Of a stretch of DNA of 1,292 bases, positions 360-719 are shown piece by piece; position 1 is the first letter of the stretch; each line of letters starts with the position of its first letter. The notes under the pieces were generated by a model. That model saw nothing but the letters and a program-made list of their open reading frames with translations. It had not been told where the DNA came from and did not search any database. The DNA comes from a phage. The stretch is from the sequence record OR846086.1; one strand, given 5' to 3'. Both the position numbers and the translations under genes were made by a program.

Positions 360-376
360 GCTACGGAAATAGCTTC

Positions 377-401
377 GAGAGCCACTTTCACAACGGCTCT
401 C
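377..401 (+). other. GC-rich stem-loop GAGAGCC-(11 nt)-GGCTCTC, 18 nt downstream of the ORF1 stop; possible transcript 3'-end or stability element, not a canonical intrinsic terminator
   Basis: Perfect 7-bp inverted repeat (377..383 and 395..401) with 5 of 7 G:C pairs; the downstream sequence is CATTACAAAG, so there is no U-tract. Confidence 0.2.
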
Positions 402-492
402 CATTACAAAGCCTATCTACGGGCGGGCTTGATAATGAAACCGTGATTTACATCCCTACAATACGGGTATGTAAAAGATAGTTCAGGCGAGA

Positions 493-512
493 ACAGATTT
501 AACTAAATCTGT
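493..512. promoter_or_regulatory. 20-bp palindrome ACAGATTTA-ac-TAAATCTGT with perfect 9-bp arms; candidate operator for a dimeric DNA-binding protein, or an RNA hairpin (8-bp stem, 4-nt loop)
   Basis: Read directly from the sequence: the reverse complement of 493..501 equals 504..512 exactly. It sits in the non-coding spacer, about 135 bp after the ORF1 stop and about 210 bp before the ORF2 start. Confidence 0.3.
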
Positions 513-719
513 GTACCACCAGTTATGGCAGTACCGCGAAACAGCCCAAGCCAGTAAGTGGGGAAAATAACACTGGCAGCCACTGAAAGATGAACCTCCT
601 GCCTTATGGCAAAAAAGATTCTTTGTGGTGGCGGACTGATGGAAAGACATCGGTTATTGCAGAGGCCATTCAATGAGTGGTCTAGACAATGGCTTATCCC
701 AACAACCGGAGCCAACACA

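Follow-up and report, generated by a model that had tools for sequence, protein, structure and literature searches.

A mosaic non-coding spacer with predicted RNA hairpins and a widespread, unannotated sequence block at the lysis–packaging gene junction of P22-like phages

What occupies a gap of 360 bp between two genes of a phage late operon, if not a third gene? The question is posed by a 1,292-base stretch of phage DNA (sequence record OR846086.1; hereafter the window, numbered from its first base, with + denoting the strand presented), in which a gene for a Rha-family phage regulator ends at position 359 and a DUF2560 gene starts with an ATG at 720. Comparison with related sequences firmly indicates that the spacer between them (360–719) is a non-coding mosaic, composed of hairpins and of a horizontally shared segment, termed block B, that is widespread, unannotated and fixed in its place and orientation. 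The spacer is not a promoter, does not belong to a known RNA family, is not a packaging site and is not essential. As to what it does, our tentative preference is for a structured stretch of the late mRNA that acts in cis, in which the hairpins and block B would play the putative roles set out below.

The window is 99.9% identical to Salmonella phage S.Kent 1-2-1 and, with one gap, approximately 97% identical to SPN9CC and other P22-like phages (genus Lederbergvirus). The gene order of SPN9CC runs from the antiterminator Q through two tRNAs, holin, endolysin, Rz and a 228-amino-acid (aa) ‘transcriptional regulator’ to the gap, and continues with DUF2560, a head decoration protein, the small and large terminase subunits and the portal, which places the spacer within the Q-dependent late operon, where the lysis region gives way to the packaging and head genes. 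An earlier interpretation made from the letters alone, here called the sequence-only reading, had found no credible open reading frame (ORF) in the spacer, and this is borne out by the ORF list, by comparative tests and by the lack of any family match. Its observation of a lower GC content also holds, with values of 0.42–0.49 across 351–700 as against 0.54–0.60 in the Rha gene. From its length, that reading had expected the spacer to be regulatory. The part of this expectation that stands is that the spacer is non-coding and that parts of it are strongly conserved, which implies some constraint or selective spread; there is no support for a promoter, an Rfam RNA, a listed non-coding RNA (ncRNA) or an origin or packaging site.

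Alignments resolve this gene-free intercistronic region into four segments: a Rha-linked stretch (360–400), block A (401–443), an optional insert (444–516) and block B (517–704). Block B, common to many lambdoid phages at the junction of lysis and packaging genes, is 92–98% identical in P22, BTP1, L, ST64T, ST104, epsilon34, HK620, Sf6, HK97, HK022, an Stx2a phage and many Escherichia coli prophages. The spacer alone, used as a query, matched 182 phage records, and a search with the whole window matched 1133 of 5426 complete E. coli genomes (about a fifth). Almost always, no feature is annotated under these phage and E. coli matches; the stretch equivalent to 401–704, approximately 95% identical in E. 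coli prophages, is annotated as ‘none’. The host range of block B comprises Escherichia, Shigella and Salmonella, with single cases in Klebsiella and Shimwellia. One scan of genome contigs for distant homologues returned only Shimwellia, E. coli and some stray contigs of metagenome-assembled genomes, and no relatives below 92–98% identity turned up in the phage collection. Two apparently divergent matches (KU927492.1 and KU927498.1, 74–75% identity) were discarded as artefacts of terminal redundancy, because these linear records repeat the spacer at both ends and so simulate a divergent BLAST homologue.

Wherever annotation exists, block B follows the lysis cassette and precedes the packaging genes. 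Its orientation matches that of the long ORFs that flank it in 117 of 122 loci and is ambiguous in the remaining five. The genes on either side of it vary widely. Those upstream fall into 12 unrelated clusters, including several Rha-type and KilA-type regulators, Rz, HK97 gp73 and a GIY-YIG nuclease, and those downstream into 13 clusters, including DUF2560, a 126-aa protein, the small terminase and an HNH protein. In several of the right-flank types the core of the block ends approximately 35 nucleotides (nt) before the start of the next gene, which is the position of a leader.

The core of block B (527–651) is nearly invariant. Across 128 distinct sequences, identity is 98–99% in each 10-nt bin of 550–650; approximately one quarter of the sequences diverge immediately after 651, and most of the others after about 704. 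In 80 loci sharing one DUF2560 allele, the core has a nucleotide diversity of 0.023, compared with 0.076 at the third and 0.011 at the first and second codon positions of the adjacent DUF2560 gene. The invariance is not merely an artefact of the search, because a second anchor pattern, lying outside the first, recovered 131 loci, in 120 of which the first 21-mer is unchanged. Two pairs of linked polymorphisms were seen in the block: A/G at 525 goes with T/A at 555 (15 and 16 sequences), giving a G × A combination that is not a base pair, and C595G goes with T607A in four of four loci. No predicted structure or ORF accounts for either pair.

A description of this element was found neither in the searchable literature nor in Rfam. 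The epsilon34 paper does not mention it, the papers on the P22 gene pid concern only the neighbouring locus, and a preprint on the Pas small RNA (sRNA) deals with the Q–holin region. Annotators of P22-like genomes have probably noticed the similarity already. The kind of feature is familiar, being either a structured intercistronic RNA or a conserved module boundary; this specific element is undescribed and very common.

To the left of block B the spacer is a series of predicted hairpins on the + strand. Hairpin 1 (377–401; GAGAGCC/GGCUCUC, 7 bp with an 11-nt loop) appears in the minimum-energy folds and travels with this Rha allele, being found only in phages that also match 360–400, such as SPN9CC, E. 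coli MS1718 (from 378) and phage Oslo. The hairpin of block A (402–437) is the most stable of the spacer and had been overlooked by the sequence-only reading; it consists of an inner stem (409–417/422–430, 9 bp in the consensus) closed by a UACG tetraloop, perhaps extended by an outer stem CAUUA/UAAUG. Of 129 usable loci with block B, 87 also have block A, which occurs without block B in mEp213, mEp043 and PhiR49_1. When cells are weighted by locus count, its pairing amounts to 99.5% on the + strand versus 83.6% on the − strand. Its 19 sequence variants comprise C-to-U changes at three positions of the 5′ arm and changes at the U·G pair, all of them compatible with pairing on +, and five kinds of one-sided change are each compatible with + strand pairing. 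The consensus energy is −20.2 kcal/mol on + and −14.7 kcal/mol on −, and the segment 370–443 folds with z = −5.2 on + and −2.6 on −. The copy in the window contains one A × C mismatch (T424C). A shuffling control for block A was not significant, because most of its pairs never vary.

The optional insert (444–516) carries hairpin 2 (447–475) and hairpin 3 (493–512) and no ORF. Its presence or absence among relatives results in two classes of spacing between blocks A and B, of 84–86 nt in 35 sequences (34 loci and the window) and of 26–27 nt in 55 loci. The 3-bp GC extension of hairpin 2 is retained in three variants, in one of them through a G-to-A change that is paired by an inserted U. In hairpin 3, two independent A-to-G changes (13 and 3 loci) yield G·U on the + strand and C × A on the − strand; they break the perfect 20-bp DNA palindrome 493–512 and keep the RNA pairing, which argues against an operator.

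Three dyad symmetries had been singled out in the spacer, at 377–401, 447–475 and 493–512, and all three are real. Repeat searches recovered the second (447–456/466–475, arms of 10 nt, 90% complementarity) and the third (493–501/504–512, arms of 9 nt, 100% complementarity), and the first is the 7-bp hairpin (377–383/395–401) of the minimum-energy fold. The dyad content exceeds chance, since the whole spacer folds at −117 kcal/mol, far better than dinucleotide shuffles (−90 ± 5 kcal/mol), with z = −5.2 on + and −4.6 on −. The further expectation that the palindromes would be conserved amid drifting flanks fared less well when the alignment was made: parts of the spacer are conserved, but the best-conserved part (527–651) is none of the named dyads. 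Two of these lie in the insert, which is lacking in approximately 58% of the loci with both blocks, and the third moves with the Rha allele.

Inside the core, an interrupted helix (579–584/627–632, 586–590/620–624 and 600–603/608–611) is predicted on the + strand, followed by a hairpin (634–641/648–655) with a GAAAGA loop, the whole spanning 579–655. The segment 575–660 folds with z = −3.5 on + and −2.6 on −. Almost all of the predicted pairs in the core are invariant and are neither supported nor refuted by variation; T600A (34 of 105) is the only common change within the structures of 579–655, and it breaks a closing pair.

In the explanation that we favour tentatively, and with clearly less than even confidence, the spacer would be an untranslated stretch between cistrons of the Q-dependent late message of a P22-like phage, preceded by a lysis cassette and its accessory gene (in this case Rha) and followed by the genes for packaging and heads (in this case DUF2560 and Dec, then terminase). 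A chain of stem-loops in the + strand RNA (377–401, 402–437, 447–475 and 493–512) would be followed by block B. The stem-loops may act as decay barriers or processing sites on the late mRNA, and block B may serve the first gene of the packaging and head module, whichever that is, as a structured leader; the head-gene portion of the message would thereby be set apart from the lysis portion, and the downstream message protected. Such a function would be accessory, not essential.

Intercistronic stem-loops are known to shape the stability of polycistronic mRNAs, as in the RNase III sites between genes of phage T7 and the REP-type stabilizers of E. coli operons. The spacer resembles these systems in that it has stable hairpins without U-tracts in an untranslated operon gap, co-oriented with the genes, and in that the substitutions keep pairing in the mRNA sense. 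It differs from them in that any cleavage or stabilization is here putative, in that its stems of 7–9 bp are shorter than classic RNase III substrates, and in that block B is conserved in sequence and not only in structure.

Several observations weigh against this explanation. In block B, predicted pairs are disrupted by three frequent polymorphisms (T555A, T574C and T600A) and no double-sided compensatory substitution was found, its diversity being too low for covariation; RNAalifold detected no double-sided covariation. The + strand preference amounts to approximately seven one-sided changes versus one or two (sign test, p ~0.04–0.09), and the pairing evidence from these sequences is accordingly suggestive but not conclusive. 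Base-by-base invariance over approximately 75 nt is not accounted for by RNA structure alone. The homologues were, moreover, collected by similarity, so that strongly diverged copies are under-sampled.

The most direct constraint comes from a published replacement in P22, in which Casjens and colleagues exchanged bp 40205–40800 for a CamR cassette (P22 UC-0938/0937); on induction the phage reached approximately 10^11 per ml, like a c+ lysogen, and it formed plaques and lysogens (bioRxiv 10.1101/2023.08.15.553423). Block B corresponds to P22 40182–40366, and the replacement removes the equivalent of the window from approximately 551 onward, including most of the core. The core is therefore dispensable in the laboratory. 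Since yields are normal, any role in head-gene expression cannot be large, which also weighs against the reading as late mRNA, and since P22 without most of the core grows normally, any function would be accessory.

Whether the core of block B is itself an undescribed functional element, either a cis RNA module or a minute antisense unit, is on balance doubtful, although it is a serious possibility; its accessory benefit, be it to late mRNA fate, to the lysogen or in anti-defence, would then be hidden in laboratory growth. If block B were functional, a very widespread phage element would have been missed by annotation pipelines, including in several of the best-studied temperate phages, and it could explain a differing handling of the lysis and head parts of the late transcript or reveal a tiny accessory unit.

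Among the other explanations, the one that survives best, which we consider rather unlikely, denies block B any biochemical function. The block would be a recombination joint, a piece of shared homology at the boundary of the lysis and packaging modules where phage and host recombinases make crossovers and which repeated exchange and gene conversion keep uniform and spread, and its conservation would reflect recent horizontal spread and not selection on a product. In keeping with this, the mosaic breakpoints at approximately 517–527, 651 and 704 are sharp, at least 10 unrelated neighbours are seen upstream and at least 8 downstream, identity stays within 92–98% with no distant relatives in the phage collection, the host range is narrow, P22 can do without the block, and morons are known to insert in this region, for instance the P22 gene pid directly to the right. 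A joint of this kind leaves unexplained, however, why the core is more uniform than the edges of the block and why substitutions in the adjacent hairpins preserve pairing. Against it also stand the fixed orientation and position of the block and the diversity of the core, which in the set of 80 loci is approximately one-third of that at third codon positions of the adjacent gene.

Conserved ‘linker’ sequences at module boundaries reportedly formed part of the modular theory of lambdoid phage evolution of Susskind and Botstein. Block B is like such a linker in being a short, highly similar non-coding segment between functional modules whose flanks are swapped on both sides, and unlike it in that the linker idea predicts homology only, whereas the diversity found here falls below that of neighbouring third codon positions, and the hairpins next to the block display constraint of the RNA type. 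Should block B have no function, it would be a clean natural case of homology conserved as a patch where two modules meet, which bears on the old question of whole head-gene module swapping among lambdoid phages.

Improbable, by comparison, is a tiny antisense, moron-like unit on the − strand, with a weak promoter near 650–617, a strong Shine–Dalgarno sequence (AGGAGG) that a hairpin with a U-run could sequester, and a GTG start for a hydrophobic peptide of 19 aa. Such a peptide would resemble very small type I toxins; alternatively, the product would be a non-coding antisense RNA. The features concerned lie at 581–616 of the − strand and comprise a terminator-like hairpin (616–595), AGGAGG (603–598) and the GTG (583–581), and judged by its sequence this AGGAGG–GTG ORF is the most gene-like feature of the spacer. 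The 7-nt AGGAGGU match to the anti-Shine–Dalgarno sequence is placed in the invariant core with the GTG 11 nt further on. The same frame is retained in 100 of 106 distinct cores, with the first 19 residues MAASVISPLTGLGCF(A/V)VLP if the start is read as Met, and in most loci the ORF is just this long (VAASVISPLTGLGCFAVLP as translated). Two predictors place a − strand hairpin over the Shine–Dalgarno sequence, the record of phage L annotates a ‘terminator’ on the − strand at the core hairpin, and the adjacent pid of P22 shows that antisense morons occupy this spot. The commonest changes are synonymous or conservative; six synonymous versus nine non-synonymous polymorphic sites, counted by hand, decide nothing.

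Other observations speak against such a unit. Its best promoter, picked out by eye, has 8 of 12 matches (TTTCCA-16-AAGAAT) and falls below the scan threshold, the 11-nt Shine–Dalgarno spacing is long, and the tail of the ORF varies across loci, giving total lengths of 19 to 94 aa. The frame is shifted in the window (+1 A) and in P22 (+2). In the second, independently anchored sample, the GTG had become GTA in one locus and the − strand Shine–Dalgarno sequence was weakened in six. Block A forms the poorer hairpin on the − strand, so that the unit lacks a terminator. Peptides from small ORFs of either strand have no match in Pfam or PHROG. The transcriptome of a BTP1 lysogen lists the ncRNAs STnc6000 to STnc6070, none of them between rha (388358–388963) and pid (389225–389539) (PMC7067206), although the copies of the spacer in BTP1 and P22 are degenerate, being frameshifted in the − strand ORF and devoid of block A.

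In P22 itself the antisense moron pid is located directly to the right of block B, between the block and orf80, and has its promoter, a long 5′ untranslated region and its terminator on the − strand (PMC8835761). The window and the pid locus (PMC8835761, PMC3573128) share the genomic spot, but pid, transcribed antisense, has its own weak promoter and terminator, whereas the window lacks pid and block B has no convincing set of promoter, gene and terminator on either strand. Block B was likewise rejected as a moron in the definition of Juhala et al., that is, an inserted gene with its own promoter and terminator, since it contains no credible example of any of the three. The P22 record has a run of 10 G (40392–40402) between block B and the pid terminator, and a second locus has 9 G; homopolymer tracts of this kind tend to vary in length.

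Still less probable is a region recognized by protein at the DNA level, as an operator or as an accessory recombination or packaging site, which could be read from GGCAG and ACTG...GAAAGA repeats and from the near-palindrome CACTGGCAGCCACTG. The invariance over approximately 75 nt is indeed base by base and not structure-shaped, and the short repeated motifs are visible by eye, but the motifs were not significant in a repeat search. The carrier phages differ in their terminases (P22-type, Sf6/PBSX-type and HK97 with HNH), in their Rha, KilA or GIY-YIG neighbours and in their immunity regions, so that no common binding protein is evident. The A-to-G changes in 493–512, which break the DNA symmetry, and the dispensability of the block in P22 also count against this proposal.

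An origin or packaging site is unlikely, because the same block occurs in the pac phages P22 and Sf6 and in the cos phage HK97; as a packaging site it was rejected, the block being found with packaging modules of the P22 type, the PBSX/Sf6 type and the HK97 type (HNH and cos) and being deletable in P22. In HK97, approximately 830 bp separate block B from the end of the linear record, at which we assume cos to be; in P22, the block precedes the start of gene 3, the presumed place of pac, by approximately 1.1 kb.

Least probable of all, and very much so, is a + strand sRNA with its own promoter, the leading idea of the sequence-only reading, or a small + strand protein from ATG 606 (the extension in ST64T orf118, or P22 orf25): a sigma70-like site at 435–462, a weak hairpin with UUUU after block B on the + strand of the majority form, the favourable start context ATG-GCA-AAA-AAG and the ORFs annotated here in some GenBank records speak for it, but the −10 element is not conserved, the terminator-like hairpin is deleted in the window and was not called by the scan, neither an Rfam family nor a listed ncRNA of BTP1 corresponds to it, and the ORF has no Shine–Dalgarno sequence and is marked by variable tails, loss of the start and frameshifts.

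The sigma70-like site in question (ATGAAA-16-TACAAT, + strand, 9 of 12 matches) is probably due to chance. The whole window contains 2 such sites, with 1.1 expected, the −10 element reads CACAAT in nearly all relatives, including the E. coli spacer, and in that E. coli version the scan calls none. The hexamers listed by the sequence-only reading had been said there not to pair at a proper spacing, and that judgement holds; a conserved sigma70 promoter of 16–18 bp spacing with an operator was rejected, given this single site with its unconserved −10. On the + strand, the terminator scan and the sequence reveal no hairpin followed by a U-run; the sole candidate, a weak one, is the hairpin 616–595 of the − strand (3 GC pairs of 9), and terminator-like sites number 2, as against 1.3 in shuffled sequence, which is no excess. 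Further candidates noted by eye were dropped: sigma54 and sigmaE promoters, IHF, Chi and ops sites, CsrA GGA motifs, MITE-like ends, a lipoprotein signal in MAKKILC, a slippery heptamer, and nut-like boxA and boxB elements (UUCUUUG with the GAAAGA-loop hairpin). The last were abandoned because the carrier phages appear to differ in their early antitermination systems, HK022 being, as we assume, without one of the N type.

The two ORFs that the sequence-only reading had doubted both exist, and both fail comparative tests. One is the − strand ORF 503–718 (GTG start, 71 aa). The other is the in-frame extension upstream of DUF2560 (606–719, + strand), the first 38 codons of a 118-aa ORF (606–962), which alignments and family searches do not support as a conserved coding sequence. 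Only its first 15 codons are kept (MAKKILCGGGLMERH); beyond them more than 8 tail types of 18–45 aa, or a fusion to DUF2560, are found. In 3 sequences its start codon is gone and in 4 the frame is shifted at an A-run; substitutions number 5/4/4 over the three codon positions, with no third-position bias. The fusion has a simple origin at 700/701, where the window, L and SPN9CC lack 36 nt (alignment columns 405–440) of the majority form, which carries ...CTACACGGGATAACTTAACTGATATCCCTTTTAACGG... at this place; the deletion puts ATG 606 in frame with DUF2560 and thereby creates the ‘orf118’ of ST64T and L. The 118-aa DUF2560 protein of ST64T and L and P22 orf25 are, on this comparison, probably over-calls. 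None of the three overlapping small ORFs (ATG 590, ATG 606 and the − strand GTG 583) behaves as a conserved gene.

The ATG 606 frame contains A-AAA-AAG at 610–616, next to an ACCUCCU (594–600) resembling the anti-Shine–Dalgarno sequence. A-AAA-AAG is the slippery heptamer of dnaX and IS911; both motifs are probably here by chance, with an expectation of approximately 4% for each in a spacer of this size.

The covariance-model search that had been proposed as a check yielded no family match. The window was searched against Rfam at permissive thresholds, and 14 related loci at gathering or permissive thresholds. The nearest candidate, Proteo-phage-1 RNA (RF03044), reached 16.3 bits (E = 5.9) in the window against a gathering score of 42; in its alignment, model segments of 28 and 26 positions correspond to 8 and 5 nt of the window, and both hairpins are missing. 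The other families of Rfam 15, AgvB, AsxR, Esr41, STnc100, IsrK and C4 among them, had no match at E ≤ 10 in the window, and ARAGORN found no tRNA or tmRNA there. RF03044 was not matched in loci L001–L003 or in 11 further loci; the only Rfam matches in related loci were to tRNAs, IsrK and C4, all of them elsewhere. One related prophage contig has IsrK and C4 antisense RNA matches side by side (L018, 1745–1933).

A contig fetched through a 16-mer of the RF03044 family (L200) does contain a genuine Proteo-phage-1 RNA (8078–8156, 84.7 bits, both hairpins present), located upstream of the lysis genes, with a PagL lipid A deacylase moron on one side and holin-like ORFs on the other. The site is the late-leader position after Q. 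The 16-mer AAAAACACCGGCAGCC matches more than 120 viral contigs, about 100 of them other IMG/VR loci (L139–L258), most with clearly covarying hairpins. This RNA and the element of the window are alike in a stretch of approximately 16 nt (AAAUAACACUGGCAGCC versus AAaAACaCCGGCAGCC), in a 5′ AGCCAG and in their occurrence in late regions of proteobacterial phages; they are unlike in that the RNA precedes holin-like ORFs in L200, the one member checked, whereas the element of the window follows the lysis genes. Its low score, missing hairpins and different context show that the window element is not a member of RF03044.

The genes that flank the spacer are identified more readily. The 3′ part of the Rha-family regulator gene (1–359, + strand, running off the left end) matches PHROG 2657, ‘transcriptional regulator’ (E = 6e-43), and its counterparts are annotated as the 228-aa regulator in SPN9CC and as ‘Rha family transcriptional regulator’ in E. 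coli. The DUF2560 gene (720–962, + strand), a homologue of P22 orf80, is assigned by Pfam PF10834 (E = 2e-22), PHROG 571 and existing annotations, and is preceded by the Shine–Dalgarno sequence GGAG (708–711). It is followed by the 5′ part of a gene for a Dec-like head decoration protein (965–1292, + strand; PHROG 3018 ‘head decoration protein’, E = 5.5e-45), whose counterparts in SPN9CC and phage L are named ‘head decoration protein’ and dec, respectively. Homologues of the Dec-like protein are labelled ‘tail fibers protein’ in many GenBank records of P22-like phages, which is probably a propagated misannotation.

In one further locus that carries block B, the ORF 3′ of the core begins as the N terminus of a small terminase (MAKLTDKQELF...) and runs straight into HNH-like sequence, an arrangement that suggests a homing-endonuclease insertion or a fusion in terS.

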